Below the pieces are notes generated by a model. It had not been told where the DNA came from. It ran no database searches and saw only the letters and a program-made list of their open reading frames with translations. A stretch of DNA of 64,000 nt from a plasmid, in sequence record NZ_CP110904.1. One strand, written 5' to 3'. Within the stretch, counting starts at the first letter, position 1. The number at the start of each line of letters is the position of its first letter. Positions 9,841 to 54,429 of the stretch are shown here, piece after piece. Both the position numbers and the translations under genes were made by a program.

Positions 9841-10273
9841 GAAAAATCCCCCAGAGAATTGTCTGGGGACATTTTAGAATGGTTCAAAGGGGACATTACA
9901 GCTTGGTGTTAACACATGGCTTCTTCTCCTTGCATTTTTGCAGGTAAGAGGCTAACCTTTAATGTGACTAGCATCAGGGGCCTCGGGTTAATTTGAAAAA
10001 ATTACTCGGGGCTTTCTGCTTTTTACCACAGTCAAACAGTGATTCTGCTGGCTGGGGCAAAAGCCTCCAGCACCGAAGCCATTATACCACCCAGCCCCCT
10101 TCAAACGAACAGGTCGACCGCCTAAATATTTAATAAGTAAGTATTTCAGGTTTTGCTGCCTCGCAGGCCGTAACAGCGGACGGCTGACGTAATCGCTGAC
10201 GAAACAGACGGATGCAAATCTCTACACTCAACGCCGCCAGCCCGTCCGGTCCCCCGCTTCTTTCCGGCTGTAA

Positions 10274-15005: not shown

Positions 15006-16062
15006 GGCTTTGTTGAATAAATCAGATTTCGGGTAAGTCTCCCCCGTAGCGGGTTGTGTTTTCAGGCAATACGCACGCTTTCAGGCATACCTGCTTTCGT
15101 CATTTTGTTCAGCGCTCGTACCAGGGCCATAGCCTCCGCAACCTGACCATCGTAGTCACGCAGCGTCAGTGAACCCCCGAACAGCTGTTTTACCCGGTAC
15201 ATCGCCGTTTCCGCTATCGAGCGACGATTGTAATCTGTTGTCCATTTCCACCGCGCATTACTCCCGGTCATTCGCTGATTAGCCACTGCACGGTTACGGT
15301 CTGCATATTCACCGGGCCAGTAACCCGCACCTTTTCGGGGAGGGATAAGCGCGCTGATTTTCTTACGCCGCAGTTCATCGTGACATAGCCGGGTATCGTA
15401 AGCGCCATCGGCGGCGGCTGACCTGATTTTCCGGTGGGTTTGCCGGATTAACCCGGGGAAGGCCTCTGAGTCCGTAACGTTGTTCAGCGACAGGTCAGCG
15501 CAGATGATTTCATGTGTTTTACTGTCAACGGCGAGATGCAGCTTACGCCAGATACGGCGGCGTTCCTGGCCATGCTTTTTGACTTTCCACTCGCCTTCAC
15601 CGAAGACCTTCAGCCCGGTGGAATCAATTACCAGGTGTGCGATTTCACCCCGGGTGGGCGTTTTGAAACTGACATTAACCGACTTTGCCCGCCTGCTGAC
15701 ACAGCTGTAATCCGGGCAGCGTAGCGGAACGTTCATCAGAGAAAAAATGGAATCAATAAAGCCCTGCGCAGCCCGCAGGGTCAGCCTGAATACGCGTTTA
15801 ATGACCAGCACAGTCGTGATGGCAAGGTCAGAATAGCGCTGAGGTCTGCCTCGTGAAGAAGGTGTTGCTGACTCATACCAGGCCTGAATAGCTTCATCAT
15901 CCAGCCAGAAAGTTATGGAGCCACGGTTGATGAGGGCTTTATTGTAGGTGGGCCAGTTGGTGATTTTGAACTTTTGCTTTGCCACGGAACGGTCTGCGTT
16001 GTCGGGAAGATGCGTGATCTGATCCTTCAACTCAGCAAAAGTTCGATTTATTCAACAAAGCC
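15006..16062 (-). mobile_element. IS903-like element (IS5 family), 1057 bp, with a 9-bp target-site duplication GCTACGATG
   Basis: 18-bp inverted repeats GGCTTTGTTGAATAAATC. Direct repeats at 14997-15005 and 16063-16071. Confidence 0.9.
15062..16030 (-). CDS. IS903-type DDE transposase
   Basis: 322 aa with the IS5-family LHLAVD and ADGAYD motifs. Confidence 0.9.
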   Translation of the reverse strand: MKDQITHLPDNADRSVAKQKFKITNWPTYNKALINRGSITFWLDDEAIQAWYESATPSSRGRPQRYSDLAITTVLVIKRVFRLTLRAAQGFIDSIFSLMNVPLRCPDYSCVSRRAKSVNVSFKTPTRGEIAHLVIDSTGLKVFGEGEWKVKKHGQERRRIWRKLHLAVDSKTHEIICADLSLNNVTDSEAFPGLIRQTHRKIRSAAADGAYDTRLCHDELRRKKISALIPPRKGAGYWPGEYADRNRAVANQRMTGSNARWKWTTDYNRRSIAETAMYRVKQLFGGSLTLRDYDGQVAEAMALVRALNKMTKAGMPESVRIA

Positions 16063-16786: not shown

Positions 16787-17401
16787 TCACCCGCTAATAA
16801 CAATGGCCTGCTCCGGTTGTGGCTGGCGATCCCCCCGCAGTGCCTCAGACTCTCTGAGACGGGCTGATGGCATCGTCATTGCCTTAAACCCCTCTTCCCG
16901 CGTACGCACCAGCATCCCCCACGAATAGGTTTCACAGACATCGTTCTCTAAATTGGGTTCGGTCGACAGCAGGGACTCCATCTTCGGTTCGATGTGTACC
17001 GGCGCAATGTTTTTATAGACAGGGTGAACACGATACTCTTCAGACGCCTGTGCCCGGTAGCTCCCTTGCGCCAGCAGCACGTCATGGGAAACCAGGTCAT
17101 ATTCCGTATCTTCGACAAAGGTCTTCAGGGTGTGCGTTATTTTGCCGTATCCTTCAATATTCCAGACGGAGACCATCGTAAACTCTTCTAACGCTCGGGG
17201 AATTTTGACCAGAAATCCATTCAATGCCTTGCGACCCTTCAGCATACCCACCAGGTATTGCTTGTTCGGATAAGGGCGCATCGCAACCAGGTCATTTCCT
17301 GTCAGGTGAAGCGACAGTTCCGTGACGCTCACGGAATCCAGCGTGCAGAGATTTCCCATCGGATGCAGGATTTTAGGTACCAGGTGTAAAAACATCGTCA
17401 T
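16787..17401 (-). CDS. hypothetical protein (204 aa)
   Basis: Last gene of the ASCH-HNH operon. Confidence 0.5.
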   Translation of the reverse strand: MTMFLHLVPKILHPMGNLCTLDSVSVTELSLHLTGNDLVAMRPYPNKQYLVGMLKGRKALNGFLVKIPRALEEFTMVSVWNIEGYGKITHTLKTFVEDTEYDLVSHDVLLAQGSYRAQASEEYRVHPVYKNIAPVHIEPKMESLLSTEPNLENDVCETYSWGMLVRTREEGFKAMTMPSARLRESEALRGDRQPQPEQAIVISG

Positions 17402-17425
17402 TATCCTCGTTTATTATGGTTTCAA

Positions 17426-17962
17426 TTATTTCGGTGTCGCTTGATACATTTCGAACCAGAAGACAATCGGCTTCTCCGTGACTTCAATTAATCCAAATCG
17501 CTCTGCGGTCCTGAAGTTGACGCTGTATGCCCTGGCGCGTTCTACCTGGCGGCTTATTTCTTTCCGCATTCCTTCAACACTCAATGCACCTTTAAAGAGA
17601 TTGCAGGGGGCGCAAGCCGGAAAAAGATTTTCGATTGCATGCAGTTCAGGATGCATGACCTTACCGGTACTTCGAGCCTGGTGTGTCACTCGACTTCCAG
17701 CGGGGGCTCTGACCATTTCAAAATCCCGCCTCACCGGTTCAACATGATCGGCATGCCAGCCTTTTTCCGGCAGAGTACAGCCGCAATAGGCACACCGACC
17801 ACCAAATTTCAAACGCAGTTCGGCTCGTTGCTCTTTGGATATTTTATTTTTGGGCTTTGAAAATCGCCCATCATCAGATTTAACCTTCGGGAGGAGTTCT
17901 GAAAAATTGGGTAATTCGATTACTGAGCCTTTGTTATTTAGAACTTTCACCGGACCTCCCAA
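17426..17962 (-). CDS. HNH endonuclease
   Basis: CAYCGC...HADHVEP...H...N...CAPCN beta-beta-alpha-metal zinc-finger motif. Confidence 0.8.
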   Translation of the reverse strand: MGGPVKVLNNKGSVIELPNFSELLPKVKSDDGRFSKPKNKISKEQRAELRLKFGGRCAYCGCTLPEKGWHADHVEPVRRDFEMVRAPAGSRVTHQARSTGKVMHPELHAIENLFPACAPCNLFKGALSVEGMRKEISRQVERARAYSVNFRTAERFGLIEVTEKPIVFWFEMYQATPK

Positions 17963-20083: not shown

Positions 20084-22465
20084 TCACGCCAGCAGGCGGA
20101 CCAGACGATTCAGCAGAGGCCTTAACAGTGCCGCAGTACTCTCCCGGCAATCATCCACATGCCGGAATCCCGTCTTTTTCGAAGACTGGGGACCGGACAG
20201 CATCCTCAGCGCCCAAATAACCTCCCGTAAGGTTTCGTCGTACTCCTGGGAAATACACCTGGCTAACGTCGTCAGAAAGCGTTTTCTGACAGCCCGGTAA
20301 TACAACCGTTCCTCCGGTTGCATTGATTGAGGCTTAATCCGCAGGTTACAGAGAGTCAGTACAGCGTCGAGCAGACCGGCTTTCAGTTCGTCACCCGTCC
20401 GGGCCAGATGTTGCTGGCGTTCGTTCTCCAGTTGCGTCGTGATCCATGCCCCAAGAGGCGTTCGGTTGTGGGTGTGCAGCGCCACACAGGCCGCAACACA
20501 GCACCAGAAGCGCAGTTTCTGCCGCTGCCCCCGCAGTTTACGGGCAACGAGCAGGCGGTAATCGCAGTCGGTCAGGATCTTGAAACGGTGGCTGACGAGC
20601 AGGGACGGCAGCGGCGTCTGGTCGTTAATGCCAAGACGTGAAAAGGCCTGCCCGCGTTGAGCGAGGCGGTGGTACACCGCACCTTTCCCCCGGGAAATTC
20701 GGACGGCGCCGTATCTAAGCAGGTACTGTGCCGCCGCCACGGGGGTAAACTCACCGTCAGACACACGCTGGCGTAATCCGTCATATTCATGCCAGATAAT
20801 CCAGGACGCAGTGTCTTCATCGACCGTCAGCTCATCCTCTTCTTCGAATGCAACGATGTTCAGGCTTTCCCCGCTGCTCAGCAGGCTGCGGGAAGCACGG
20901 TCATCCTCCCGACCGTCAAAATAGGCCATTTCGGCAGACGGATCAGACAGCCCGTCAAATGACGTCCCGATACGGCCTTCCGGCAACTTCATCCAGCGTG
21001 GTGCTGGCATCGGCGTGCGGGGTACGGGTTGCATAGCTGGCTCATCGTCGAGCAGATCCAGTGCCCCCCCTTCCCACACCTGGCGGTAAAGTTCGATGGC
21101 GCGAAATGGTCGCGGGTTAAAGCAATGCAGTGACCAGAGAAAGTCGATATGCAGCACGTTGGCTTCCTGCACCAGTCGAAACTGCGGCTCCGCCATGCGG
21201 CGGTTATGCGCCGTATCTTCGACCTCGCCAGAAAGTAACTTTTCCCGCACCGCTGCGGCCCGCTGGGCCTCCACGTAATCGAGGCTGCAACAGATATGGA
21301 ACAGTCGTTCGGTCAGGGACGACGAGAAAACATTGGGCTGAAGACGCACATACCCGCCCTCAAACACTTTGCGGCCGATATAATCCCGAAGGCTCCAGTC
21401 GTACTGGATTTTGGTCAGGAAACGCTGAAGGCGGTTTAGACCAGCCTGGTAGCCGTACTTCTCAGGATCAGTGCGGAGTAAGGTTTCCATCGAGTGGTCA
21501 ATGCCGACGGCGCAGCATAGCGAGCATCCATAGCGAGCGCCGCAGGCAGAAGACCGGGCCGTGTATTTCTCCGGCGTCCAGATACATTCCCCGGTCGCGT
21601 CTTTGTAAAGCGTGGCGAGGCTGAAGTTGTCCGGCAAAAAGCTTGGCAGCGGAAATCGCGCCAGCGAACCACAGGCCATCAGAAATGACCAGATATCCTG
21701 TGTCCGCCACTCTTTCACCGGGTACAGTTCGCCGCCGAGCTCCGTGAGCGAGACGCTGTCCGACTGCCCGCCCATTCTGAGGATGTTGCCTGCCCGACGG
21801 GCGCTCTCATCATCGCGGGAACCCAGCATCAGGCACACTTTGTTGCGGACGGAAGCTGGTGCATTTTTTAAATAACGGGCTTTGGCCTGGCGCAGTGGAG
21901 AGCGTTTGAGATCTGTAGAGCATTGACGCGTATTGGAATTTGTCCAGGTCGGAAGTCCGCGTCCGGTCAGAATGCGTCCGACCCAGCTCTGGGTCATGGA
22001 CGGGTGGGCCACCAGGACGGTCACGGGCAGTTGCTGTTCGGCAATAAAGGCTCGGAGCTGGCTGAGAACCTGCGTGGACTGATGATGCATCTCAGGGTTT
22101 TCAATCTGGGTGTTGGAGATCTGAATGAAGTGGTGCTGGCTGACGTTCGACCCGTTCCGTACGGCACGGATCAGGGCCATGAGGAACAGGTGCAGTAGCG
22201 AGTGGGAGTCTTTCCCGCCGCTGTAGCCGACGCACATGGTCCAGCCTTCGGTAATCGCATGATAAATGGCACTGGTTGCCGTCGTCACGCGCGATGCGAG
22301 ACTGACCGGCTCACCGGCATCGGTATAATTCAGATCCGCATCGGTCTTCAGTGTTTGCCAGACATCGCCCCATTTATCCTGCGTCAGAATGGCAGCGTTA
22401 GCCGCCTCAGAAAATTGAATTTCTGAGGGTAATTCAAGGAATGTTTCTTTTATTTCGATATACAT
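20084..22465 (-). CDS. PAPS-reductase / DndC / IbrA-superfamily PP-loop ATP pyrophosphatase with a roughly 400-aa C-terminal extension (793 aa)
   Basis: PP-loop SGGKDS at residue 82 (CVGYSGGKDSHSLL) and a Cys cluster CGARYGCSLCC of the DndC/CysH iron-sulfur type. The C-terminal half has no recognisable family. Confidence 0.7.
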   Translation of the reverse strand: MYIEIKETFLELPSEIQFSEAANAAILTQDKWGDVWQTLKTDADLNYTDAGEPVSLASRVTTATSAIYHAITEGWTMCVGYSGGKDSHSLLHLFLMALIRAVRNGSNVSQHHFIQISNTQIENPEMHHQSTQVLSQLRAFIAEQQLPVTVLVAHPSMTQSWVGRILTGRGLPTWTNSNTRQCSTDLKRSPLRQAKARYLKNAPASVRNKVCLMLGSRDDESARRAGNILRMGGQSDSVSLTELGGELYPVKEWRTQDIWSFLMACGSLARFPLPSFLPDNFSLATLYKDATGECIWTPEKYTARSSACGARYGCSLCCAVGIDHSMETLLRTDPEKYGYQAGLNRLQRFLTKIQYDWSLRDYIGRKVFEGGYVRLQPNVFSSSLTERLFHICCSLDYVEAQRAAAVREKLLSGEVEDTAHNRRMAEPQFRLVQEANVLHIDFLWSLHCFNPRPFRAIELYRQVWEGGALDLLDDEPAMQPVPRTPMPAPRWMKLPEGRIGTSFDGLSDPSAEMAYFDGREDDRASRSLLSSGESLNIVAFEEEDELTVDEDTASWIIWHEYDGLRQRVSDGEFTPVAAAQYLLRYGAVRISRGKGAVYHRLAQRGQAFSRLGINDQTPLPSLLVSHRFKILTDCDYRLLVARKLRGQRQKLRFWCCVAACVALHTHNRTPLGAWITTQLENERQQHLARTGDELKAGLLDAVLTLCNLRIKPQSMQPEERLYYRAVRKRFLTTLARCISQEYDETLREVIWALRMLSGPQSSKKTGFRHVDDCRESTAALLRPLLNRLVRLLA
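21232..21242. repeat. AAAGTAACTTT palindromic repeat, copy g (inside the 793-aa gene)
   Basis: Exact palindrome followed by TTTTCCCGC. Confidence 0.5.
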
Positions 22466-22642
22466 ATTATTTCCTGAATTTTGGCTTTCGCTGCATTATC
22501 GCGTTATTTATTAAACCCATCTAATATCTTCAGTGCAATATGTGAAGATAAAATTAGTTAAATTGGAATTATGCCAATTTAACTAAATAGCACTGAACAA
22601 ATAGAATTACGCGGCAATAAATATATTATCTTTACCACGCTC

Positions 22643-23089
22643 TCACGAATACTGCTGGGTAATTAAAACCGTCGTATTTGATTCCAGCTCTGCCAACGGA
22701 ATTCTGGGGGTATTGAGCATCATGTCATCACCGCAATGGCGGGGTACAGCCGTCAGTTGAAATGATTCTTTCATGACCCGGATGGAAGTTGTTTCCGTGC
22801 GAGAGGACGGCATGACGTCCCGGAGCATGGTTTCCTGCCCGTTACTGTCACTTTCAATAAATGCAGCCTTCGCCATGAGTTCCTCAATGTCCTCTTCCGA
22901 TGTTTCGGACCAGAGGCAGTCATAGAAGAAAAACTCTGCAACGTACAAATCATTCTCTTTCACGTATGCCGCCAGTTCACGGATACGCTGAGCCAGCGAT
23001 GTATCAATGGAAAAGAAGACGCTTTGCGGGACTTCACTCGCAAATTCATTGATGCAGCTAGCGGACGCAATCAAAAGTTTATTGAACAT
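22643..23089 (-). CDS. hypothetical acidic protein (148 aa)
   Basis: RBS GGAG 6 nt before the ATG at 23089. The ORF track gives 23125. Confidence 0.5.
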   Translation of the reverse strand: MFNKLLIASASCINEFASEVPQSVFFSIDTSLAQRIRELAAYVKENDLYVAEFFFYDCLWSETSEEDIEELMAKAAFIESDSNGQETMLRDVMPSSRTETTSIRVMKESFQLTAVPRHCGDDMMLNTPRIPLAELESNTTVLITQQYS

Positions 23090-23135
23090 TTCAGCTCTCC
23101 ATGCCACCGGCTGTCCCGGTGGCAATCTAGGGTTA

Positions 23136-23942
23136 TCAGGCAGTCACGGGGCACAATACGTCCAGCGAAGGCAGCAATTTGCTCAGGCTGTCGTACACGA
23201 CGGGCGTCAGTTCGGTGACGCTGTGAAGCGCCATGCTGGTGTTGTCTTCTTCGCTGAGAATGATGACTCCATCCTCATCAGGATCGTCAGAAGTACTCTC
23301 GTCCGAGGCCAGGCGGTGGCGTGCAACGTCATAAGGCGATTCAGACGCTTTGCAGCTCATCAGATAGCATTCTGTGTATGTGTTTTCGTGGTTATACTGG
23401 TTCACTTTCACCAACGCATACTGAACACCGGCATCATGGGCTTCGTTCATCAGGCGGGAAAAATTAAAGCCTTCCTCATAGTGGTGTGTATCTTTAGTCA
23501 CCACGATTGTCGCACCGCCGAACTCGTTTTCGCGTGGTCGGTCGCAGACGAAAGCGGCATTGATTGTGACCATTTCAGGCAGGTTAAACACCGACAACAC
23601 GGCAGTTGTTACCGCGATTGCGTGGTCGAGGTTAATGCTTTCATCATGGCTGATTGCCAGACCGCTACCGGTGATTTCCGCTTTGAGTTCCAGCTCGTAA
23701 TTGTCTTCTGGTGACTCCGGCTGACCAAAAGTCGGCTCAAACGGATCGCACTCCGGGTGGTTCTGAATAATACCCAGGACCAGCAGTTCAGTGAGGGAAC
23801 ACTCTGAAGCAGGTTTAGACAGCAGGTGATCACCTTCCGACACATCCGTGTCCGTAACATACGCAATCGCGTCCAGAGCCATCTGAGCCTGTTCCTGTGA
23901 ACAGAGAATTGTGAAGGATGCCTGAGTGTAATTATTTGCCAT
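23136..23942 (-). CDS. hypothetical acidic protein (268 aa)
   Basis: RBS AAGGAG. Has its own promoter-module copy. Confidence 0.55.
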   Translation of the reverse strand: MANNYTQASFTILCSQEQAQMALDAIAYVTDTDVSEGDHLLSKPASECSLTELLVLGIIQNHPECDPFEPTFGQPESPEDNYELELKAEITGSGLAISHDESINLDHAIAVTTAVLSVFNLPEMVTINAAFVCDRPRENEFGGATIVVTKDTHHYEEGFNFSRLMNEAHDAGVQYALVKVNQYNHENTYTECYLMSCKASESPYDVARHRLASDESTSDDPDEDGVIILSEEDNTSMALHSVTELTPVVYDSLSKLLPSLDVLCPVTA

Positions 23943-24022: not shown

Positions 24023-24171
24023 CGAAATGAAATATTTTCGAAGTTTTTATAGAGAAGACAGGCGCCATATTTATTAATCCAGCCATTATTTAGAGGGCGG
24101 CATTAAGTAATTATGCGGAAAAAATAAAAAACCGCCACAAGGGCGGCATTTATTAAATGGGAAAGATTCAG

Positions 24172-25426: not shown

Positions 25427-25870
25427 CTATTTCAGCCGTGTTTCGAACTGGTAAGGAATTTTCTGGACGGTTTTCATCAGATCAAAAATCGCCGGATGAG
25501 CCGGATTTAAAAGGTAGTTAAACTCCACCGGAGATAATGCACTGGGAATACGCAGGGCAACAGAAGAGCCACTTTCAGCCCAGTTATCGCCATACAGGGC
25601 AAGTTCTGCGGGCGCATCTTCACTTGCCCAGCCCGGCGGCAGCAGGTTCAAGTCAAAGGCCTGGATCTGGTCATCCGGGACATCAATGCTCAGCAGCGTG
25701 TAAGCGTCCAGAAGCTGCGGGGCATTGATATGCACCAGCGTCTCCAGCATGGTCAGAGAGGCCGTCTCGGACAGATAGACAAGTGCTGTGCCGACACTGT
25801 TCCAGCGGCCTCCCGCTTCTTTCGCACCTAATCCCGACCATGCAGTCGTAATATAGCGGGTCTTGGTCAT
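25427..25870 (-). CDS. RES-domain toxin
   Basis: GGRWN...TASLTMLETLVH...LLNPAHP signature of RES-domain toxins. An alternative GTG start at 25885 overlaps the antitoxin stop. Confidence 0.8.
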   Translation of the reverse strand: MTKTRYITTAWSGLGAKEAGGRWNSVGTALVYLSETASLTMLETLVHINAPQLLDAYTLLSIDVPDDQIQAFDLNLLPPGWASEDAPAELALYGDNWAESGSSVALRIPSALSPVEFNYLLNPAHPAIFDLMKTVQKIPYQFETRLK

Positions 25871-25881
25871 CCGATACAGGA

Positions 25882-26328
25882 TCACGAATAGACTCCGTGT
25901 TCAATACGGGTGATCAGGCGCATCACTTCGAGTGCGCCGGTTTCCGAAGAGACAACATCTGCCGGAGTCTTCCAGCTCAAGCCACGGTTTGGCTCGTTCA
26001 TCCATTTCTGTGCTGCCTCTTTGTCGCCTTCGAACAGCTCTACAGCCCGTTCAATGACGCGAATAATACGCACCAGACGTTCGCTCTGATCCGCAGTGAA
26101 ACGGGCTTTTACGCTGCGATTGAAGGTGGTGTTCGGAATGCCGGACATTTTGCGCAGTTCCGACGGCGTGATGTTCGCCCATTCAGAAATGGAATGAGCG
26201 ACTTTACCTTCCAGTCCGTGGCTAATTTTGTCCATCAGCGCAATGCCGTCATTATCCAGACCCACCACCTGCCATAAGCCGTGCGGGTTCATTTTGGATA
26301 AATCTGGAGAAAAAACTTTCATAGTCAT
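25882..26328 (-). CDS. Xre-like antitoxin with a DUF2384 (MbcA/ParS-type) C-terminal domain
   Basis: C-terminus WMNEPNRGLSWKTPADVVSSETGALEVMRLITRIEHGVYS. RBS GGGAGG before the ATG at 26328. Confidence 0.8.
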   Translation of the reverse strand: MTMKVFSPDLSKMNPHGLWQVVGLDNDGIALMDKISHGLEGKVAHSISEWANITPSELRKMSGIPNTTFNRSVKARFTADQSERLVRIIRVIERAVELFEGDKEAAQKWMNEPNRGLSWKTPADVVSSETGALEVMRLITRIEHGVYS

Positions 26329-26404
26329 AACCGACCCTCCCATTTGGGATGTCAATTATACCATATGGGTGACTACTGGCAATATTTTCACCTTTCTCAT
26401 AACG

Positions 26405-26888: not shown

Positions 26889-28158
26889 TCATCCCCCTTC
26901 CCGCAGTTCATCACGGTAAAGGGCAACCAGGTCATCGAGTATCGGGCTGCTCTGGTATCCCGGCATTTCTGTAAACAGGCTGCGCGAGATCCCGAGCCAT
27001 TCCATTATTTTGTCCGTTGCATACCAACGTCTGCCGAGCCGCTCAGCGGCAACCGGTACTTTGTGCAGACCGGCAAATGGCTCAACTACCAGATCACCAG
27101 GCCTGGTGAGGAACTCGATCAGGAATGCGGCGAGTCGAGTGGGTGACGTTGCACCGTGCAGCGGAAACCCCAGTTCGCGGGCGATGCGATGGCAGAGCCG
27201 CGTATCCGGGCAGGCATTGCCAAACATAAGCGTATTTTTGGGGATAGTCCCTTCTGTCTTATTGCCGAAGGCGCCATTTTTAAGCTGGTAAGCGCCATCC
27301 CCGTAAAATGTAGTGCGGTTTTCGCCGCCGGACGCCTGCAATTTCTGATGCTGCTCTGAATGAGGCTGGAGAACGCGCATGTTGTTCGAACGAACCTTTT
27401 GCGCGTCATTAGTAAACCACAGCACCGGCTCGTAAGACGAACAGAGCTGAACACGCTGTTTACACGCCCAGTGAGTCGGCGACGGGGGTTTCGCTCGGTT
27501 CACCCAGTTCAGTCTGTCCATCAGCTCAAGACCCAGCTTATCGCACAGCGCCAGTGTCAGTCTTTCCAGATACAGAGAGCGCGATGGCCTGCCTGGATTA
27601 AAGCTGTCCTGCGTCACATTGAGCGCCACGCTGCCCCCCGGCACGAGCTGCTTCACGATAGGCTCAAGAATCCGCAGCAGCCAGTCAATATACGCCTGCT
27701 CACCGCGTCCGCCGCCGTGCCCGTAATTTCGGGCATTACGCAGCAGGAACGGGGGCGACGTAAGGCAGAGATGGATTTGCTCATTGATGTTGCTGAAGAA
27801 CGCGTACGCATTCCCGAAGACCGATGCCCCGAGCGAAGTTGAGAAGCCAACGACGCACAGTTTGTCCCAGGACTCATGCAGCTTCTTGTCATTTTTGAAG
27901 GCATAGCGCCAGACGCCCCGCTTTTCCGGGACACGCTCGATCACCCCGGCCTGCCGCAGCGTCTGCTGATACCAGCGAACCTGATGCTTGACGCCGCTGG
28001 TTCGCATTTTGTCCGAGCCGAACGCCTTCATTTTCTGTAGTTCTGCATCCGACATCCCCGTTTCGCGTTGTACCTCGCGATACAGCTCTTCGTTCGTTAA
28101 CGGGGTGTCTGACGCGGCATAGATCCGCGCAATCAAATCGCTGTTAAGGTTGCTCATC
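26889..28158 (-). CDS. beta-class DNA methyltransferase (N6A/N4C, SPPF motif), orphan
   Basis: Motif IV TSPPF precedes the C-terminal motif I (VVEPFAGLH...YATD). The N-terminal roughly 90 aa form an extra domain. No adjacent nuclease gene. Confidence 0.8.
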
Positions 28159-28755
28159 AGCCATCCTTGAAAAACGGACCAGGGCGGCTTCACACTGCTC
28201 TTTACCCCACGAGTCCTGCCAGTCGCACAGGTGGAGATATTTGCGTTCGAGTGCTTCCATTTCATCGAGATTTGAACTCGATAATCCCGCCCAGACGTCG
28301 TGCCAGCACACATCGTAAGTAACGCCTGCCGGTGGGCAGTATTCCAGAGCATCCGCATGGATGATTTCAACACGGGGATCGTGGGCAAAGGCCTCGGCAA
28401 CCAGGTTAATCACATCCTGCGACTTCTCAATGACAGTCACGTTGTTAACTTCCGGCTTCTGAAGAATGGCGTGCAGCACCATCCCCAGCCCCAGTCCGTT
28501 GATCAGGACGTGCCCTGTCGCTCGCTTTATGAACTCCTGACAGAGTTGGATTTCGTATGGCAAATTGGTCATCACCACATTTCTGCCATTTGAAAGGCGG
28601 CGATAGTTACCGGGCTGTAAAACCGCGTCGATATCCTCCGTAGCGGCACGGAGGAAAAGGCTAACCGCCTTATCTTTGGAGATTTCGAAGCTGTCCAGTG
28701 TCCAGGCACCGGATGTTCCATCTTTAACAGGTAAATTAGAAAAGCAACTCTTCAT
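28144..28755 (-). CDS. small class-I SAM-dependent methyltransferase-like protein (203 aa), tandem paralog A
   Basis: Rossmann motif I VLINGLGLGMVLHA and post-I DPRVEIIHADALEY. Confidence 0.6.
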   Translation of the reverse strand: MKSCFSNLPVKDGTSGAWTLDSFEISKDKAVSLFLRAATEDIDAVLQPGNYRRLSNGRNVVMTNLPYEIQLCQEFIKRATGHVLINGLGLGMVLHAILQKPEVNNVTVIEKSQDVINLVAEAFAHDPRVEIIHADALEYCPPAGVTYDVCWHDVWAGLSSSNLDEMEALERKYLHLCDWQDSWGKEQCEAALVRFSRMADEQP

Positions 28756-32416: not shown

Positions 32417-32713
32417 TTAATGGATTAGCGATTTATAATCATGCGCCGACAGGTGAACGTTATGTACGCCATCATTCCACACAAAGAATAACCGATATTT
32501 TGAATTAACTCGAATGGAAGAGTACCGGTTTGCGGTCATCCTTAAGCGTTCGTAACGCAAACTACTTGATAACAATTCGCGTTCGTTTTTTACATTATTT
32601 AACGTTTTCAGTCTGCATGAAATCGCATTTAACAGATCAGCAGGAATACCTGCTGTGGACTTTCCATTACGGAAAAAGCTTTCCAGCCGTCTGTCTTTAA
32701 ATGAATGGATCAT
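32417..32713 (-). CDS. HigB-like (RelE/ParE superfamily, killer-protein type) toxin
   Basis: 98 aa, alignable end to end with Rts1 HigB (MI.SFK..L...F..G....G.PA ... DG....V.L.DYH). Confidence 0.65.
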   Translation of the reverse strand: MIHSFKDRRLESFFRNGKSTAGIPADLLNAISCRLKTLNNVKNERELLSSSLRYERLRMTANRYSSIRVNSKYRLFFVWNDGVHNVHLSAHDYKSLIH

Positions 32714-39961: not shown

Positions 39962-42382
39962 ATGAAATATCAGACTATAACTTTGGCTATGGTTTTGCTC
40001 GGCGTCTCAGTTCCGGTAACAGCTCAGATTTATGAATCCAGCTTTACAGATACCAATGGCATTGAAGTACACGCGCCTTCAACCCGGATGCTACTCAATC
40101 CGGCTTCTACCGTAACGCTGACGCTTATTTCTGGATTGGATCGCTTTGTAAACGTTAAAGTGACCCGGGAAACCGGGGCGCAGTTGTACAATACCACCAC
40201 TACCCGTACCGGTGTGGCTGATCGGCTAAAAGCAGCCGACAGCAGTGAATTTTACGGGAAGAAAGTAACTTTACCCGCTCTCGGGGAAGGAAAACTGATC
40301 GTCCAGGTCAACATTTTGGATCTGAATCAGTCAGTGGTAGCTACGTATAACTACAACTGGACAATAGACACCACACCTCCGGCTGCAAATGCCCTTACAG
40401 CAACCACATCACTGGGCACTGGAACTGGAGCGGTATTTAAATTAGGTCTTGAAGCTGTGGCGCAATACAGCTTTTTATCAACGGGCATCGCTGATGCGGT
40501 TGGAATAGATAAAGGCATATTTGAAATCTATCGCGCTAATGGAACCCTTTTCAGCTCAACGCCAATGAAATACAACGTCGGTGACAAGACGATGTACCTG
40601 CCCTACACCTTCGCAAGTGTGAAGCAACCGGGCATCCCTGATAGCAACCTTGACGAAGAATTTCAGGCAAAAGCCAAAATTTACGACACCGCCGGGAATA
40701 TCCGCACGTTACCGACCCAAAAATTTCGGTTTGATAATACAATTGGTGAGATATCCCTTTTCGCTGTTCATGATCCAAATGATGCAACCAGCGTCGTTCC
40801 CGGCGTGAAAAACTACCCGGCCTATAAAGCCGGTATGGTGGTTAACGAAAACCCTATCAGGCTGGTGTATAAAATCCCGAGATCTAACTACCGGGCATAT
40901 GCAGAGGGTGGACTGGAATTTATTAACCTTTATTCGGCTGCAAAAGAAATCGCTTCTGATGCCACCTACAGCTATGTCGAAATGACGCTGCCATTTGGTG
41001 CCTTCAATGGGGATATGGCTCGTATGGCCAACTTTGGACAGTGGGCAGGATACTTCCCGACCTACACGATGACGCTCAACCCGAACGCAAACAAGACGCC
41101 TGCTTTTACTGGCACCTGGGAGGATTTTCAGGATAGCAATGGCACCTGGTATAAGTCGAAGGACTTCGAGACAGTTCTGTCTTCCAGATTGCCGATTAAA
41201 ATCGTCCGGGCAAGATTTAATGTAGAAGCCAGACCGTTTGAGCAGGAAGTTGGGGGACGCCTAACCTGCCGCATTCCGGTTGGCCAGACAAGTTGCGAAG
41301 CTCCTGAGAATTTTGATATGGCGGTAGGGACTCAGGGTTATAACCGTACACTTTATTATGTACGCAGTGTCGCGAACCCTATTCTTCGTTCCGAGCAGTG
41401 GGTTATGACACGCTGGAACAATCAAATCGTCCCAGAAATTGGTGAGATCACCTACAGCCCGACATCTAAGATACTGACTGTTGAAGCTCATCTCAACAGA
41501 GATAATGATTGGTTCGACGGATTCAGACTCCTCGGATTCTATCTTACCGATAAGAACTCCAAACAGCGCATGACGCCTGTGGGAGTCGAAAAGTCCAGAA
41601 ACGCGGGTAACTACACGATTGAGTATGACCTTTCCCGGCAGTCTGAAGGGCAATACAACGTTGAAGTGAATATTCAGGATCGTTTCGGTAACCAGACAAA
41701 CAAAACCTATGGCGTGATAGCTCTCGATGCCACACCCCCAACGGTTGCTATTACCTTCGAAGGGAAGCCGGTAAAGGATGACACCGTCGTCTATGGTCTG
41801 GAAAATCTGCGCATTGCACTGAGCGATAACCTGACCACACCTCGCATTACTCGTCTCCAGCTAACTGGCGGACCGACATCAGACAATGTTGAACTCAGTT
41901 GGTCACCTGCTGGTAAAGACATATACTCGCCGGAATATCCGCGCATATTCCCGAATTTCGAGCCCTCTGAAAACTATGCTCTCAGTGTGACAGTGTCGGA
42001 CAGCCAGTCCAACACAAAAACTTACACACAGAAGTTCAGTTATCTCCCGAACAACTTGGTACAGCTGCATAACCTTCGAACCCTTGCAGTAAAGTCGGCG
42101 CTCAAAACCTCTGATAACGTGCCACTTGCCTATCTGTCTACAAACATGCTCCGCAAGACTAACGGTGAAATAGCCAAAGGCTTACAGAACGCGACCCTCT
42201 CAGTACGTAAGGATGCCAACTTCGGGATAGTGTTTAATGGAGCGGAGGCAGCTCCTGGGGAGTCTGTAAATGTTAATATCGACATGGGTATGGGTGATAA
42301 TCTTCTCATGCCGGTTTATCCATCAGAGAACGGCAAGACCGGAGCCGCTGAGTTTATGATCCAAATTGATGAGCTGAAGTAA
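39962..42382 (+). CDS. secreted Ig-like repeat protein, family member 1 (806 aa)
   Basis: Sec signal peptide (cleavage at about VTAQ-I), conserved N-terminal domain (ISGLDR motif), divergent beta-rich core, conserved C-terminal domain YLPNNLVQLHNLRTLAV...DELK. RBS AGGGGA. Confidence 0.7.
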   Translation: MKYQTITLAMVLLGVSVPVTAQIYESSFTDTNGIEVHAPSTRMLLNPASTVTLTLISGLDRFVNVKVTRETGAQLYNTTTTRTGVADRLKAADSSEFYGKKVTLPALGEGKLIVQVNILDLNQSVVATYNYNWTIDTTPPAANALTATTSLGTGTGAVFKLGLEAVAQYSFLSTGIADAVGIDKGIFEIYRANGTLFSSTPMKYNVGDKTMYLPYTFASVKQPGIPDSNLDEEFQAKAKIYDTAGNIRTLPTQKFRFDNTIGEISLFAVHDPNDATSVVPGVKNYPAYKAGMVVNENPIRLVYKIPRSNYRAYAEGGLEFINLYSAAKEIASDATYSYVEMTLPFGAFNGDMARMANFGQWAGYFPTYTMTLNPNANKTPAFTGTWEDFQDSNGTWYKSKDFETVLSSRLPIKIVRARFNVEARPFEQEVGGRLTCRIPVGQTSCEAPENFDMAVGTQGYNRTLYYVRSVANPILRSEQWVMTRWNNQIVPEIGEITYSPTSKILTVEAHLNRDNDWFDGFRLLGFYLTDKNSKQRMTPVGVEKSRNAGNYTIEYDLSRQSEGQYNVEVNIQDRFGNQTNKTYGVIALDATPPTVAITFEGKPVKDDTVVYGLENLRIALSDNLTTPRITRLQLTGGPTSDNVELSWSPAGKDIYSPEYPRIFPNFEPSENYALSVTVSDSQSNTKTYTQKFSYLPNNLVQLHNLRTLAVKSALKTSDNVPLAYLSTNMLRKTNGEIAKGLQNATLSVRKDANFGIVFNGAEAAPGESVNVNIDMGMGDNLLMPVYPSENGKTGAAEFMIQIDELK
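40262..40272. repeat. AAAGTAACTTT palindromic repeat, copy j (inside a gene)
   Basis: Exact palindrome. Confidence 0.45.
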
Positions 42383-46806: not shown

Positions 46807-47973
<1,167 letters not shown>

Positions 47974-49270: not shown

Positions 49271-51727
49271 TTACTTCAGTTCCTCGATATTCAGCATAAA
49301 TTCTGACGTTCCGCTGACGCCGGAAATCGATGGGAAAATCGGGAAGCTGCGGCTGTCACCCAGACCCAGATCCAGCTGAACGTTTTTGCTCTCCCCTGGT
49401 GCTGCGGAAACCCCATTCACCGTAACGCCGAAGGCCGCATCCTTACGTACCGTCAGTATCGCGTCCTGTTTCCCTGTTGCGATAGAACCGTCCTTCTTGC
49501 GCAGCTGGCTGGCATACAGTACAGCCAGCGGCGTGTTGTCGGACGTTTTCAGGGCGGTACTGACGGAGATGGTCTTAAGGTTCTCCAGACGTACCAGGTT
49601 GTTCGGCAGGTAGTTAAATTCGACGGCGCTTTCTTTAACGTTGTTCATCTCGTCTTTGGCATACACGGTCAACGTGTAGGTTTCACCGTCATTAAGTGAC
49701 GGGAAGATCTTCGGGTAATTCGGTGTATAGAGATCATTTCCGAGATTTACCCAGGACAACTCAACAGCATCAGATACCGGTCCACCTCGAAGCGTCATGC
49801 GAGTTAACGAGGGTTTGGTCAGAGTATCTGCGAGCTGAATTCGGACGTTTTCCAAGCCGAACACTGTCACGTTGCTGGTGATAGGTTTGTTTTCGTAGTT
49901 GATACTGATGGACGGCGGCGAGTTATCGACCGTCACGGTTTTGTAGGCTAAGCTTCCCGTGTTGCTGAAAGAATCCTGGGCGTTGAGCTGCACGTTATAG
50001 CTGCCCTCCGGGATCTGTTTCAGGTTGAAGTCGTAAGTATAATTCCCGGTTGCTGTGTTACGCCCCGTTTGTTTTCCTGTCACGTTGATATCCGCGTTAT
50101 TGCGGGATTTGTCAGACAACCACACCCGGCTCAGTTTAACGGCATCGAAATACCATCCGTCTCCTGGCTCGTTGACGAATACCTGAAGAATGTTGGTCGC
50201 ATCATTGTAGTTGTAGCCAGTAACTGTGGGCCCCTTTGTATGCCAGGCGATGTTTTCCCAGAGCGGCATGAAGAAGGTGGACTCGGTTGTCGAACGCACT
50301 TCATAGGCAGTATGTATATAGCCGGTGGTACCGTTTGTAATCGCCTGTGTCAGGTCGACAGTACACGACGTTGACCCGGCAGGGATCTTGCAGGTGGCAC
50401 TGCCGGTAATTGCTTGTTCGTAGGGGCGTGCTTGCACAGTGAAACGGATCTTGGTTAGGTTCACCGGCATATCTGAAGCCAGAAAATTTTTCCAGTCGAC
50501 GCTATTGAACCAAGTGCCGTCAGACTTCTGTCGCTCAATCGCAGGACTCCCCCACGCAGGACTTTTTACCGCCGCCGGGTCCCAGTTCAGCCAGGAGGCG
50601 TACTGAGTCAGACCGCCACCGGCCCATTGGTACCTGTTCACAGGGCGATAGTAGTTTCCATCCAGAGTACCCTGTGGGAGCTTCACTTCTACGTACACAT
50701 AGGTCGTGTCTTCTGAAATAACCTTAGAGCCGCCATAATTGTTAAGAATGGTGATGCCGCCGTTACGGTATGGCTGCCAGTTAGTTCGGGGAATACGAAT
50801 GACCATCCGGTACGGGTTTTCGAGTACAGAGAGCCCCCGCACAAACGGTACGTACCCTGAAGAGATCCCTGGAACCACACTCGTACTGACTCGTGAGTCA
50901 TGGACCGCAAAGGGCGTATATTCACCTATCTGGTCATCAAATAAAAAGCGCTGCGGAGGAATATTCAGCGTGTTTCCGGCTTTATCCGTGATGATAAAAT
51001 TGAAGGTGAACTCTTCATTAAGATCGCTGGTGGGCATGCCAGGTTGAGTGACCGCACCCATGATCCAAGGGTAAAAGGCGCGTTTTGCCGCCGAGTCGTA
51101 ACTGAGTTTATTGTCGGATACGACTGCCCCATTACTGCGCTTGATGACCAGCCGGATCTTTTCTATACCATTTGCATCATCCACTCCATCAGCAAAGATA
51201 GAAAACTGTCCAGATCCTCCGCGCCCGAGCTCCCAGAGGGGACCACTCAGTACCATGTCATAGCCTGCGTCCTGGCTCGGGTAAATGCGGGTGTACTTCG
51301 GTGCCGTGGTATCGATGGTGAAATGATACGTAGAGGAACTGACGACGGCTTGCTGGAGATCCAGCGTATCGTTGACGATTGTAAAAGCCCCTTCCCCGAG
51401 AGCAGGTAACATCATGTCCTTACCGTAATACTCCGTGCCGTCTGCTGCCACTATGCGGTCGGCGACGCTTATCTTTGTCGTCAGTGCGGAATACATGACC
51501 TTTTTGTCACTGTCTCTGGTCACACTCACTCGTTCGTACCGGTCGAGGCCGGAGATTAGATTCAGGTTCAGTGTGCTTGCCGGATTGAGATAGCTCAGCG
51601 TGGAAGGCTTAAGCGTCTTTGCCAGCTGATTGGTGTCGGTATACGAATAGCTGAAAATCTGAGCCGCCGCCGGAAAAGCTGAAGCTATGGCCATACCAAT
51701 TATGCAGCCTGCCAGTGTTTTACGCAT
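49271..51727 (-). CDS. secreted Ig-like repeat protein, family member 2 (818 aa)
   Basis: Signal peptide and the same conserved N- and C-terminal domains. RBS GGGAG. Confidence 0.7.
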   Translation of the reverse strand: MRKTLAGCIIGMAIASAFPAAAQIFSYSYTDTNQLAKTLKPSTLSYLNPASTLNLNLISGLDRYERVSVTRDSDKKVMYSALTTKISVADRIVAADGTEYYGKDMMLPALGEGAFTIVNDTLDLQQAVVSSSTYHFTIDTTAPKYTRIYPSQDAGYDMVLSGPLWELGRGGSGQFSIFADGVDDANGIEKIRLVIKRSNGAVVSDNKLSYDSAAKRAFYPWIMGAVTQPGMPTSDLNEEFTFNFIITDKAGNTLNIPPQRFLFDDQIGEYTPFAVHDSRVSTSVVPGISSGYVPFVRGLSVLENPYRMVIRIPRTNWQPYRNGGITILNNYGGSKVISEDTTYVYVEVKLPQGTLDGNYYRPVNRYQWAGGGLTQYASWLNWDPAAVKSPAWGSPAIERQKSDGTWFNSVDWKNFLASDMPVNLTKIRFTVQARPYEQAITGSATCKIPAGSTSCTVDLTQAITNGTTGYIHTAYEVRSTTESTFFMPLWENIAWHTKGPTVTGYNYNDATNILQVFVNEPGDGWYFDAVKLSRVWLSDKSRNNADINVTGKQTGRNTATGNYTYDFNLKQIPEGSYNVQLNAQDSFSNTGSLAYKTVTVDNSPPSISINYENKPITSNVTVFGLENVRIQLADTLTKPSLTRMTLRGGPVSDAVELSWVNLGNDLYTPNYPKIFPSLNDGETYTLTVYAKDEMNNVKESAVEFNYLPNNLVRLENLKTISVSTALKTSDNTPLAVLYASQLRKKDGSIATGKQDAILTVRKDAAFGVTVNGVSAAPGESKNVQLDLGLGDSRSFPIFPSISGVSGTSEFMLNIEELK

Positions 51728-52041: not shown

Positions 52042-54429
52042 TCAAAACTGCGGGAATTCAACGGCAAATTCAGATGTACCAGAAACGCCACTCTTTCCTG
52101 GTGTGACAGAATAAATACGTTCTTCACCCTGCCCCATATCAAAAATGATTGCCTTTGTCTCTCCTGGCTCAACGGTTACGCCAGCTACACTTACCGGGAA
52201 GTCAGCATCTTTCCGCACGGACAGCGTACCGTTTAACTGCCCGGTAATGACAGAACCATCTTTTCGGCGAAGTACGCTTGTCCGGATAAAAGCCAGTGGC
52301 TGGTTATCCGTGGTCTTTAGTGCAGCCGCAGTAGCAAGGGTACGTAGCCTGTCCAGAGTGATCATGTTTGCTGGTTGATAGAGGAAATTGAGCTTTTTCG
52401 AGGACCGGTTTCCAGAGGCATCGACTGCGTGAGCTTCAATTGTATAAATGCCATCCTCTTTTGCTATTACGGGAAAGATACGCGGGTACTCTGGCGTATA
52501 AACTCCTGAGCCCTGACTGGAATAAGCTAATGTCACCTGTTCACTGTTTGGTCCACCGCTCAACACCAGTGATTCAAGCGAGGCGTCACCTGAAGGGTCA
52601 GCTACACTAATTCTGAGGTTTTCTAGTCCCTTAATCAGTTTGCCTTCAGGATCATCATTCAGATACCGGTAGGATATTAGAGGGGCAGTGGAGTCAATGG
52701 TAAGCAAATCATTTATCACGTAGTTTGCCGTGTTGCCCACAAGATCTCTTGCATAGGCGGACAGAACGGTATATTTGCCGTCCGGCAGATCAGCATAGGA
52801 AATGACCGCGTTTTTTGTTTTAAAATCACTCTCTGTCCATGTCCTGGCGGGTAGGTCAATCACATTCCCCGTTTCGGTTTTAAGCACCACGCCAAATTCT
52901 CGGGTATCCCATGCTCCTATTTGCCATCCATTTATCCGGTCATCATCAGTAACCGTCATGGTTACATTTTTATCCATACGGTTAATTTTTACGGCGTTAA
53001 TAACCGGTGGGTTGTTATCCCAAATAACTACGAATGCCCCAGCCAGATTATCATAAATAGCTGTACCGTCTTTACCTGAGACCAGATGGATGTATTGCAT
53101 CCCCTTATCGGAAGTAAAGGTATAATCCACGTTCATGGTACAACCAGTGCTTCCTACCGGGATAAGGCAGTACCAGTTACGGTTCGAATTAGCTGCAACC
53201 CGTTGTACATAGTTACGAGGTTCGGTAGTCACGCGTATTTGGGTAAATTTGGCAGTTCTTACATTCCCAGTAGCACTGCTCCATTTACCGGTATCACTAC
53301 GAAAAATTTCTTTGCTTGTGACCTTTGGTGCAAGTTCCATGGTTGGGGAAGGAGTGAAAGATAACTCAGAGTGATGGTACCGACGAACGCCTCCCGCAAG
53401 TGTCTGGAATTCGTGATAAATATCACCGGTACTGGGGAAAACAAAATTGAACGAATAAATATTATATGTGCTGTCAGAACTTTGATAATTGGCATCTGCC
53501 CACCCAAAGCTTGTTTTATTAGCAGCAGTAAAGTTACTTTTATTCCTGAGTACCCGCAATGATATTGGATTACTGTAAACAGTTATCCCAGCTGAGTAGT
53601 TTTCCCAGGTATTTGTCCTGGTATTAAGCACCTGTAGAACAGAAGGAGGGTTGACCCGATCAATCACACTTTGTCTGCTTACTGATGCTTTATTTCCTGC
53701 CTTGTCATAAACATAAAGGCCCATACGGTATTCAGACTGAGAAGCTGGCGCCAGGGCTGGATCGCTCGCAGTAGTATTTTGGACGGTTACTGAATTATCG
53801 ACCAGGTTAATTACAGCCCCTCTCTTTCGTTCAACGCCGTTCGAATCGACAAGAAAGTACTCAGCCCGGTCGAGACCAGAGCGACTGTCTGAAAGGCCTG
53901 AAAAGACGAGAGCCTGAACAGAGGCATACTGCATACCTGAAGGAACGCTGGTAAAGATGGCTTCGCTACCATATTGCCATCCATTTCGCGTATATCCAAT
54001 TGTGCTAGTTTTAGGGGGAGTGCGGTCGATAGATATAACGTAGTCCCGGCGAGAAATTTCATTATTTTGGAGATCTGTGATCACTTCCCTCAGGGTGTAA
54101 TTATCTTCACCAAACGCAGGGACACTTAACCTTTTTCCATAATAGTCATACCCGCTACTGGAGGTCATACGGTCATCAACCGTAACTTTGCTACTTTTCG
54201 TGCTCCACAAGCTTGCACCGTTGACATTAAGTAACGACAACTGGACGTACCGGTCTAAGCCGGAGATTACATCAGCCTCGAATGAGGTTGCTGGATTAAT
54301 CCACTGCACAGATGGAACAACAATCTTTGGTTGATTCTGAGTGTCATTGAATCTTAACTCTGCAATCTCAGCTTGTGCCGTAAACGAAAAAGCTATGAGT
54401 GGTGCTAAAAGTATCGCCCTGCATTTCAT
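52042..54429 (-). CDS. secreted Ig-like repeat protein, family member 3 (about 795 aa)
   Basis: Starts MKCRAILL with RBS GGGGGAGG. The ORF track gives 54456. Confidence 0.7.
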   Translation of the reverse strand: MKCRAILLAPLIAFSFTAQAEIAELRFNDTQNQPKIVVPSVQWINPATSFEADVISGLDRYVQLSLLNVNGASLWSTKSSKVTVDDRMTSSSGYDYYGKRLSVPAFGEDNYTLREVITDLQNNEISRRDYVISIDRTPPKTSTIGYTRNGWQYGSEAIFTSVPSGMQYASVQALVFSGLSDSRSGLDRAEYFLVDSNGVERKRGAVINLVDNSVTVQNTTASDPALAPASQSEYRMGLYVYDKAGNKASVSRQSVIDRVNPPSVLQVLNTRTNTWENYSAGITVYSNPISLRVLRNKSNFTAANKTSFGWADANYQSSDSTYNIYSFNFVFPSTGDIYHEFQTLAGGVRRYHHSELSFTPSPTMELAPKVTSKEIFRSDTGKWSSATGNVRTAKFTQIRVTTEPRNYVQRVAANSNRNWYCLIPVGSTGCTMNVDYTFTSDKGMQYIHLVSGKDGTAIYDNLAGAFVVIWDNNPPVINAVKINRMDKNVTMTVTDDDRINGWQIGAWDTREFGVVLKTETGNVIDLPARTWTESDFKTKNAVISYADLPDGKYTVLSAYARDLVGNTANYVINDLLTIDSTAPLISYRYLNDDPEGKLIKGLENLRISVADPSGDASLESLVLSGGPNSEQVTLAYSSQGSGVYTPEYPRIFPVIAKEDGIYTIEAHAVDASGNRSSKKLNFLYQPANMITLDRLRTLATAAALKTTDNQPLAFIRTSVLRRKDGSVITGQLNGTLSVRKDADFPVSVAGVTVEPGETKAIIFDMGQGEERIYSVTPGKSGVSGTSEFAVEFPQF
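53530..53540. repeat. AAAGTTACTTT palindromic repeat, copy m (inside a gene)
   Basis: Exact palindrome. Confidence 0.45.

Follow-up and report, generated by a model that had tools for sequence, protein, structure and literature searches.

DndC is an Fe-S ATP pyrophosphatase supplied with sulfur by a cysteine desulfurase; IscS can take the place of DndA in this pathway (PMC8569181). Four conserved cysteines of DndC are taken as the ligands of a [4Fe-4S] cluster. True DndC goes together with DndD, an ABC-type ATPase, and with DndE. The same catalytic superfamily includes SspD of the Ssp system and BrxP of BREX type 4, which work with the nucleoside triphosphatases (NTPases) SspC and BrxC, and BrxP is an example of this domain being joined to further modules and taken up into new sets of partners (PMC12914056). 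Outside of dnd operons, a DndC-like enzyme is found as IbrA, which comes with DUF3440 and the ParB-like protein IbrB. Proteins with a phosphoadenosine phosphosulfate (PAPS) domain also occur in phages: a PAPS-domain-Dam fusion from Vibrio phage p0018 made a Dnd-sensitive Vibrio phage Dnd-resistant (Piel et al.), and for Aca-regulated phage PAPS reductases a role in anti-defence has been proposed. Here we analyse a solitary DndC-like gene within a 64,000-nucleotide stretch of a plasmid (sequence record NZ_CP110904.1), hereafter the window, to which all coordinates refer unless a locus is named. The gene lies on the minus strand at 20084-22465 (stop codon 20084-20086, ORF call) and encodes a protein of 793 amino acids (aa).

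With DndC (TIGR03183), its best-scoring hidden Markov model (HMM) family, the plasmid protein shares the PP-loop motif SGGKDS and four aligned cysteines. However, its gene stands alone, and its C-terminal 350-450 residues are unrelated to the C-terminus of DndC. Like IbrA, it is a DndC-like enzyme encoded outside of dnd operons, and the DndB partner present in one clade of its family represents a comparable two-gene logic, DndB/DGQHR having a ParB-like fold; in contrast to IbrA, it has neither DUF3440 nor an adjacent IbrB. SspD and BrxP belong to the same catalytic superfamily as the plasmid protein, whereas SspB/C and BrxC/Z/L are absent from the window. The phage PAPS anti-defence proteins resemble it as solitary DndC-like domains, fused elsewhere, on mobile elements with methyltransferases nearby. 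They differ in measuring 400-480 aa with a Dam C-terminus, while the C-terminal region of the plasmid protein is unmatched, and the plasmid family is absent from phage collections except for one plasmid-like record. Since solitary PAPS-reductase/DndC-like anti-defence candidates are already a recognised theme, the protein does not represent a categorically new kind. What is new is the lineage, which is specific to plasmids and has a conserved region without a match among solved or viral structures. We tentatively propose, as a possibility rather than an established function, that the product of the gene is a catalytically active offshoot of the DndC sulfurtransferase family, specific to conjugative plasmids, which acts as a nucleic-acid-modifying anti-defence factor.

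Domain architecture of the DndC-like protein

The family architecture consists of a DndC-like core (residues ~56-445), a conserved family-specific region (~446-640) and a fast-evolving, basic, helical tail (641-793). The initial annotation had described a 793-aa open reading frame (ORF) with the motifs SGGKDS and CGARYGCSLCC, and both are present, at residues 82-87 (PP-loop S82-S87, 22205-22222) and 308-318 (cysteine cluster, 21512-21544), respectively. An acidic N-terminal leader (residues 1-55, 22301-22465; isoelectric point (pI) 4.05), of which residues 1-27 are poorly modelled and a DKW motif at 30-32 is conserved, precedes the PP-loop ATP-pyrophosphatase or DndC-like catalytic domain (residues 56-344, 21434-22300). 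All of these features, and those of the C-terminal part described below, lie on the minus strand.

The assignment of the N-terminal half to the DndC/PAPS-reductase family, also made in the initial annotation, held in the HMM searches. The DndC models of PADLOC match residues 60-444 (E 1.7e-35), the NCBIfam model PRK06850 matches residues 58-445 (E 2.5e-35) and the TIGR03183 DndC model residues 66-408 (E 1.1e-30). All of these scores fall far short of the curated cut-offs for true DndC (TIGR03183: 107 bits versus an equivalog cut-off of 290.4), and Pfam PAPS_reduct (PF01507) is passed marginally over residues 78-263, at 24.1 bits versus a gathering cut-off of 22.5. The PADLOC MTase_II model PDLC03333 matches residues 63-337. 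Only weak matches were obtained with the PHROG PAPS-reductase families (E 7e-11), and TtcA matched at E 6e-3 as compared to E 1e-31 to 1e-35 for the DndC models. DUF3440, the IbrA-type domain, gave no Pfam match at E values up to 0.1; in the PADLOC scan SspD was not matched and BrxP was marginal (E 8.5e-5).

For a comparison of profiles, the family was represented by 36 members, down to 24% identity, and DndC by seven genuine DndC proteins. Using hhalign, the family profile aligned to the true DndC profile with a probability of 100% (E 1e-46) and ~27% identity, over residues 71-350 only. In this alignment, C182, C294, C314 and C317 coincide with the four invariant cysteines of the seven true DndC proteins. 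Among the 36 family members no substitution occurs in the PP-loop or at C182, C314 and C317, and C294 and C308 are almost invariant. The AlphaFold2 (AF2) model of the full protein (predicted local distance difference test (pLDDT) score 87.4), together with Foldseek, indicates a Rossmann-like fold of the adenine-nucleotide alpha-hydrolase type, the N-domain matching the PAPS domain of FAD synthase, CysH, adenosine phosphosulfate (APS) reductase and the Fe-S sulfurtransferase TtuA at E values from 8e-6 to 1e-3. A profile search of the PDB sequences yielded no DndC/SspD structure for comparison. The hallmark of CysH is the C-terminal catalytic cysteine motif ECG[LI]H, and a search of the 793-aa sequence for ECG[LIV]H found no such motif. 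The protein is neither a sulfate-assimilation enzyme nor DndC proper. As judged from its sequence, it is probably a diverged, active DndC-type PP-loop enzyme, for which the conserved PP-loop and cysteine set argue.

The C-terminal part is composed of ~100 residues shared with the DndC models, ~195 family-specific residues and a lineage-specific tail of ~150 residues. DndC HMM envelopes extend to ~445 within the conserved middle region (residues 345-640, 20546-21433), of which 446-640 is family-specific. AF2 models residues 345-640 with a pLDDT of 91.9, and no structural match to this region was found in the PDB or BFVD. The tail (residues 641-793, 20087-20545) is basic (pI 10.2) and all-helical, with long helices predicted, and it is missing from family members of 600-670 aa. 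Conservation across the family is equal for the N-domain and residues 345-445 and somewhat lower for 446-640, while 641-793 diverges very fast. Beyond residue 445 no model from Pfam, NCBIfam, PADLOC or PHROG matches. A novel half of 400 aa and roughly twice the normal size had been suggested for this protein. No described family indeed covers the C-terminal part, but because the homology to the DndC models continues up to ~445, the unmatched region comprises ~350 aa; the protein is also only ~1.5 times the size of DndC (~450-550 aa).

To define the occurrence of the C-terminal part, residues 345-793 were used in an exhaustive phmmer search of 1.84 billion representatives, which returned 245 proteins (clusters at 50% identity). 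In the full-length hits, proteins of 560-900 aa, the match to 345-640 always starts ~280-420 residues into the protein, and thus the region occurs solely behind a DndC-like domain. The tail is matched by close relatives alone. The protein thus carries a conserved family-specific region where DndC has its own C-terminus.

Distribution on conjugative plasmids and search for partner genes

The window is an IncHI plasmid backbone. Over the stretch with the DndC-like gene it is identical to IncHI-type plasmids such as pECO-109b, which is typed with an IncHI1A replicon and a MOBH relaxase. A 4.3-kb stretch shows 99.9-100% identity to large conjugative plasmids from Citrobacter, Klebsiella, Enterobacter and E. 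coli, a further 215 plasmids match it at 90-95% identity, and 111 of the 112 matching places in E. coli genomes are plasmid-borne. IncHI2A plasmids carry a form of the protein at 76% identity. In RefSeq, the gene is labelled 'phosphoadenosine phosphosulfate reductase family protein' and both ORFs upstream of it 'hypothetical protein'. The GC content of the gene is 57.5%, versus 48.6% for the window and 30-40% for the flanking spacers, which suggests acquisition from a GC-richer source.

In PLSDB, the family-specific C-terminal half is present in 2,276 of 72,556 plasmid records, and 1,991 of these carriers (87%) are typed conjugative. Their hosts are mostly Escherichia, Salmonella, Klebsiella, Enterobacter and Citrobacter, and also Vibrio, Aeromonas and Burkholderia. 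IncHI and IncC plasmids carry the gene in their backbone. A single record out of 50,697 in the phage collection matches (AB571791, named Salmonella enterica); its match equals that of IncC-type plasmids in identity (39.8%) and span, so that the record looks like a plasmid. No relative of the family was found in IMG/VR, and a locus search with a narrower family alignment returned nine genome loci and no viral loci.

Recurrent neighbours of the gene are orphan DNA methyltransferases, ArdA-type Antirestrict genes, LPD29/30, JAB/RadC-like and DUF4942 genes and toxin-antitoxin genes. In IncC plasmids, it is located within a long co-directional array, with a dcm methyltransferase 1.8 kb upstream. 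The ArdA-type Antirestrict gene (PF03230) is found immediately upstream in locus L028 and ~1 kb downstream in locus L011. That the family is confined to conjugative elements and keeps company with methyltransferase and antirestriction genes suggests that it serves the plasmid and not the host.

We then searched for the usual partners of DndC-type enzymes. When a genuine plasmid-borne set of DndB, DndC, DndD, DndE and DndA was compared with the window by tblastn, the DndC-like gene alone was matched. A scan of the 90 window ORFs against Pfam and PADLOC identified methyltransferases, toxin-antitoxin parts, Ig-like proteins and transposases, and no Dnd, Ssp or BREX component. No ParB-like gene adjoins the DndC-like gene; the only HTH_ParB domains belong to partition-like proteins at 56.8 and 62.4 kb, at a distance of over 34 kb. 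In 12 other contexts, no DndD or DndE was seen next to the homologues, and homologues in IncHI2, IncC, MOBF, Burkholderia, Vibrio and metagenomic elements were never located inside dnd, ssp or BREX operons. These contexts therefore do not mark the gene as a known fragment of a complete operon. The assertion that every usual partner is missing applies to the 64-kb window, which lacks DndA/B/D/E, Ssp, BREX and an adjacent ParB-like protein, but not to the whole family, as a sister clade retains DndB.

In this small clade of MOBF/MPF_F plasmids from Salmonella and Citrobacter, genes for a full-length DndB/DGQHR protein (PF14072, E 2e-45) and for a 93-aa product lie ahead of that for a 669-aa homologue (locus L011, 6472-10381; locus L026, 18472-22381). 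The 93-aa ORF upstream of the DndC-like gene and a 100-aa ORF downstream of it are paralogous, with 42% identity, and DndB, the two small ORFs and the DndC-like gene may form a compact four-gene module. The DndB neighbour ties the family to DNA-modification biology. In the MOBF plasmid pSA20053897.2, the module of DndB, 93-aa ORF and DndC-like gene lies inside a ~23-kb array together with antirestriction, LPD29, JAB/RadC, N6-methylase and DUF4942 genes. All genes of the array are read toward a non-coding gap of 2 kb, beyond which lie the type IV coupling protein (T4CP) and MobF relaxase genes. Leading-region anti-defence genes of conjugative plasmids lie in the part that enters the recipient first, share the orientation of their neighbours and are transcribed toward the origin of transfer (oriT). 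We infer from the layout in pSA20053897.2 a classical leading-region arrangement, with oriT in the 2-kb gap. Surveys of leading regions in the literature do not cover MOBH plasmids, and the gene is not mentioned in the pVCR94 paper.

The gene is not intact in all carriers. The epidemic-type IncHI2A plasmid pMS7884A, still typed conjugative, has lost the first ~310 codons: ~1.5 kb of other DNA replaces the 3' part of the 148-aa ORF upstream and the 5' end of the DndC-like gene (locus L031, 2271-5452), and an ORF for the non-catalytic C-terminal 470 aa alone persists. This truncated form is common to many Enterobacter and Citrobacter plasmids, and represents a sizeable IncHI2 sub-lineage. Insertions of IS903B in the gene also occur.

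Surroundings of the gene in the IncHI window

Two ORFs of the minus strand lie upstream of the DndC-like gene, one of 268 aa (23136-23942) and one of 148 aa (22643-23089, from an ATG start; 160 aa if an upstream TTG is used). Both are acidic, with pI values of 4.20 and 4.33, respectively, and a 177-bp AT-rich spacer of 29.9% GC (22466-22642) separates them from the gene, in agreement with the initial annotation on both counts. They had further been credited with a promoter module of their own. A terminator-like GC hairpin with a T-run at the end of the preceding gene (24131-24147, minus strand) is followed by an AT-rich gap of 229 bp (35% GC) ahead of the pair, which fits a separate transcription start; a consensus promoter scan ahead of the pair, however, revealed no strong promoter. 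The hairpin is the upstream edge of the unit formed by the acidic ORFs and the DndC-like gene. Within the spacer, at 22554-22586, there is a perfect 13-bp inverted repeat, TTAGTTAAATTGG-N7-CCAATTTAACTAA, followed by TTTTAT, with a single-strand fold z of -3.4. This palindrome does not recur in the rest of the window beyond chance and is conserved only partly in IncHI2. It could terminate transcription of the acidic pair, act as an operator, or combine the two roles.

The acidic ORFs matched nothing in Pfam, NCBIfam, PADLOC, PHROGs or the PDB. Homologues of the 268-aa and 148-aa ORFs are restricted to IncHI-type plasmids (14 and 16 clusters, respectively), and no counterpart adjoins the DndC-like homologues in IncC, MOBF or Burkholderia elements. 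This confinement shows that they are not family-wide partners, contrary to the earlier view of them as part of the system; they are lineage-specific neighbours and no core parts. The 268-aa ORF was also considered as a diverged DndB and as a relative of a 273-aa ORF that precedes the Burkholderia homologue, and both assignments were rejected (hhalign probability of at most 0.3%, BLAST empty). That the acidic ORFs are DNA mimics would be pure speculation from charge alone.

The DndC-like gene belongs to a run of 38 consecutive minus-strand ORFs (10274-33837, 23.6 kb) that is broken only by an insertion sequence (IS) at 15062-16030. The initial annotation correctly placed the gene on a plasmid, with methyltransferases and toxin-antitoxin modules around it. 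In an orphan N6/N4 DNA methyltransferase (26889-28400), the methylase domain is preceded by an Mrr_N domain, which normally serves type IV restriction enzymes in DNA recognition. Toxin-antitoxin genes are represented by RES-Xre (25427-26355) and RelE (32417-32713), and the sok antitoxin RNA of a hok module (9915-10075, Rfam 81 bits) lies just past the downstream end of the run. DUF957 and DUF3085 genes are also part of the run, as is an HNH endonuclease gene (17426-17962). Directly next to the HNH gene lies a DUF6012 gene of the run, and this pair (window 16787-17962; locus L006, 12494-13750) follows the DndC-like gene 2-3 kb downstream in both IncHI lineages. It does not adjoin the homologues in IncC, MOBF, Burkholderia and Vibrio elements. 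In pECO-109b, the 38-ORF array is transcribed toward a mobI/mobH/traD cluster at a distance of ~12-43 kb.

Elsewhere in the window, an isrC Hfq-binding small RNA was identified at 47620-47742 (Rfam 146 bits). Large proteins with bacterial Ig-like domains (Big_3_3, Big_3_2) and DUF4165 are encoded at 39962-42382, 49271-51727 and 52042-54456. In the IncC plasmid peH4H, the array with the DndC-like gene also includes a gene for an Ig-like protein, which indicates synteny common to IncHI and IncC. The Vibrio homologue adjoins a gene pair of Prok-E2_D and ThiF (E1-like), a further accessory module of mobile elements (locus L029, 2134-3752).

Possible functions and their implications

The suggested role for the plasmid, the predicted catalysis and the DndB neighbour in the MOBF clade together favour protection of the transferred DNA, by modification or by interference with phosphorothioate (PT)-based restriction. 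In the function we tentatively propose, the DndC-like protein would be expressed in the recipient during plasmid establishment, and would use ATP and sulfur from the host cysteine desulfurase IscS to modify the plasmid DNA. The mark may be a PT or a related sulfur or adenylyl adduct. Alternatively, the protein could plug into a resident Dnd/Ssp machinery. By either route the incoming plasmid would evade restriction, including PT-dependent restriction by Dnd/Ssp-type systems. Residues 446-640 and the basic tail would serve in DNA engagement or partner contacts, as DndD/DndE do in the canonical systems.

Several observations weigh against this proposal. Strains bearing IncHI2 or IncC plasmids are not known for Tris-dependent DNA degradation, the mark of genome-wide PT. 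All four proven PT systems (Dnd, Ssp, Tdp and BREX type 4) require a P-loop NTPase in addition to the protein with the PAPS-reductase domain, and isolates that have a PAPS-reductase gene without an NTPase partner have no PT (PMC12914056). A Walker A or NTPase motif, sought in the novel region, is absent from the plasmid protein, and the window scans revealed no NTPase neighbour. The truncated pMS7884A-type sub-lineage and the IS903B insertions show that the gene is dispensable. A leading-region place of the IncHI gene would follow by analogy with the MOBF clade only. Furthermore, literature searches for the gene on IncHI or IncC plasmids brought up neither a description of this DndC-like family nor an experiment on the protein. 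The NTPase requirement would have to be met otherwise: either the C-terminal region replaces the NTPase, or host parts are borrowed, or the product is a different one.

Borrowing could go so far that the protein does not modify DNA alone. As a DndC paralogue it would then bind DndD/DndE (or SspB/C) and IscS of the recipient and redirect them onto the plasmid, or block DndFGH-type restriction. We regard this reading as unlikely. An anti-Dnd/Ssp factor of this kind would not require the NTPase and DNA-recognition partners that are absent here, and a phage PAPS-domain protein acts against Dnd where the host supplies the remaining pathway. A DndB homologue adjoins the gene in one clade, and Dnd systems occur in Salmonella and E. 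coli, hosts of these plasmids. However, such a factor would matter only in the minority of hosts with PT systems: dndCD is found in ~4% and sspBCD in ~3% of genomes (PMC12914056), yet the gene belongs to the IncHI/IncC backbone. A Dnd-positive host already has a DndC of its own, the strict conservation of PP-loop and cysteines speaks for catalysis rather than mere binding, and the would-be partner-contact region, the DndC C-terminus, is not conserved with DndC. The opposite extreme, a single polypeptide that installs a sulfur mark (PT or a thiolated base) on the transferred plasmid DNA without a DndD/SspC/BrxC-type NTPase or a DndE/SspB subunit for DNA recognition, with host IscS and ATP only, seems quite unlikely to us. 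Residues 446-640 and the basic tail would in that case constitute a new DNA-engaging module and, if true, IncHI and IncC resistance plasmids would bear a self-contained 'stealth' DNA-modification enzyme against restriction.

Given the pair of HNH and DUF6012 genes in the two IncHI lineages, one may ask whether the protein supplies the modifying component of a defence or exclusion system borne by the plasmid. It would mark plasmid and host DNA, and a nearby nuclease, e.g., this pair, would attack unmarked DNA of phages or rival plasmids. PADLOC models do score the protein as DndC, and in what one report states about Dnd modification neighbourhoods, these encode other nucleases that may be real restriction parts (PMC10853773). 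We nonetheless consider this distinctly improbable: the pair does not accompany the homologues in IncC, MOBF, Burkholderia and Vibrio elements, the recurrent neighbours are instead anti-restriction genes and orphan methyltransferases, and the NTPase for PT synthesis is missing likewise. The substrate might also be RNA or a small molecule. The protein could act as a tRNA thiolase of the TtcA/TtuA kind and adjust host translation to plasmid genes, or, as an adenylating enzyme, it could destroy a signal used in defence. PP-loop and Fe-S architecture thiolates tRNA in TtuA and TtcA, both among the fold and HMM hits, and PP-loop activity is common to the RNA-thiolating ThiI, MnmA, Ncs6 and TtcA (PMC12914056). 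The far better scores of the DndC models compared to TtcA, the DndB gene in the sister clade and the DNA methyltransferase and antirestriction company point to DNA, which makes this substrate highly improbable. Least of all do we expect a literal sulfate-assimilation PAPS reductase (CysH) or a decaying, functionless remnant, for which the chance appears close to negligible. The RefSeq name, the Pfam PAPS_reduct score barely above threshold and the truncated or IS-disrupted copies on some plasmids would agree with it. However, the ECG[LI]H motif is absent, and the cysteine pattern and best HMMs are of the DndC type. The ORF is intact and its motifs are kept from 95% to 24% identity, on more than 2,000 plasmids and in 245 clusters at 50% identity, which is unlike the behaviour of a remnant.

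IncHI2, IncHI1 and IncC plasmids rank among the main carriers of resistance genes, mcr, blaNDM and blaCMY included, and the DndC-like gene in their conserved backbone has been catalogued thousands of times under the generic and misleading label 'PAPS reductase'. Should the protein modify DNA, or disarm restriction of the Dnd/Ssp or classical type, the anti-defence repertoire of plasmids would gain a new class, one based on an enzyme. The gene could also show whether DndC-type chemistry runs without the NTPase thought to be obligatory. An anti-defence role, if true, would account in part for the wide range of hosts in which IncHI and IncC plasmids occur.

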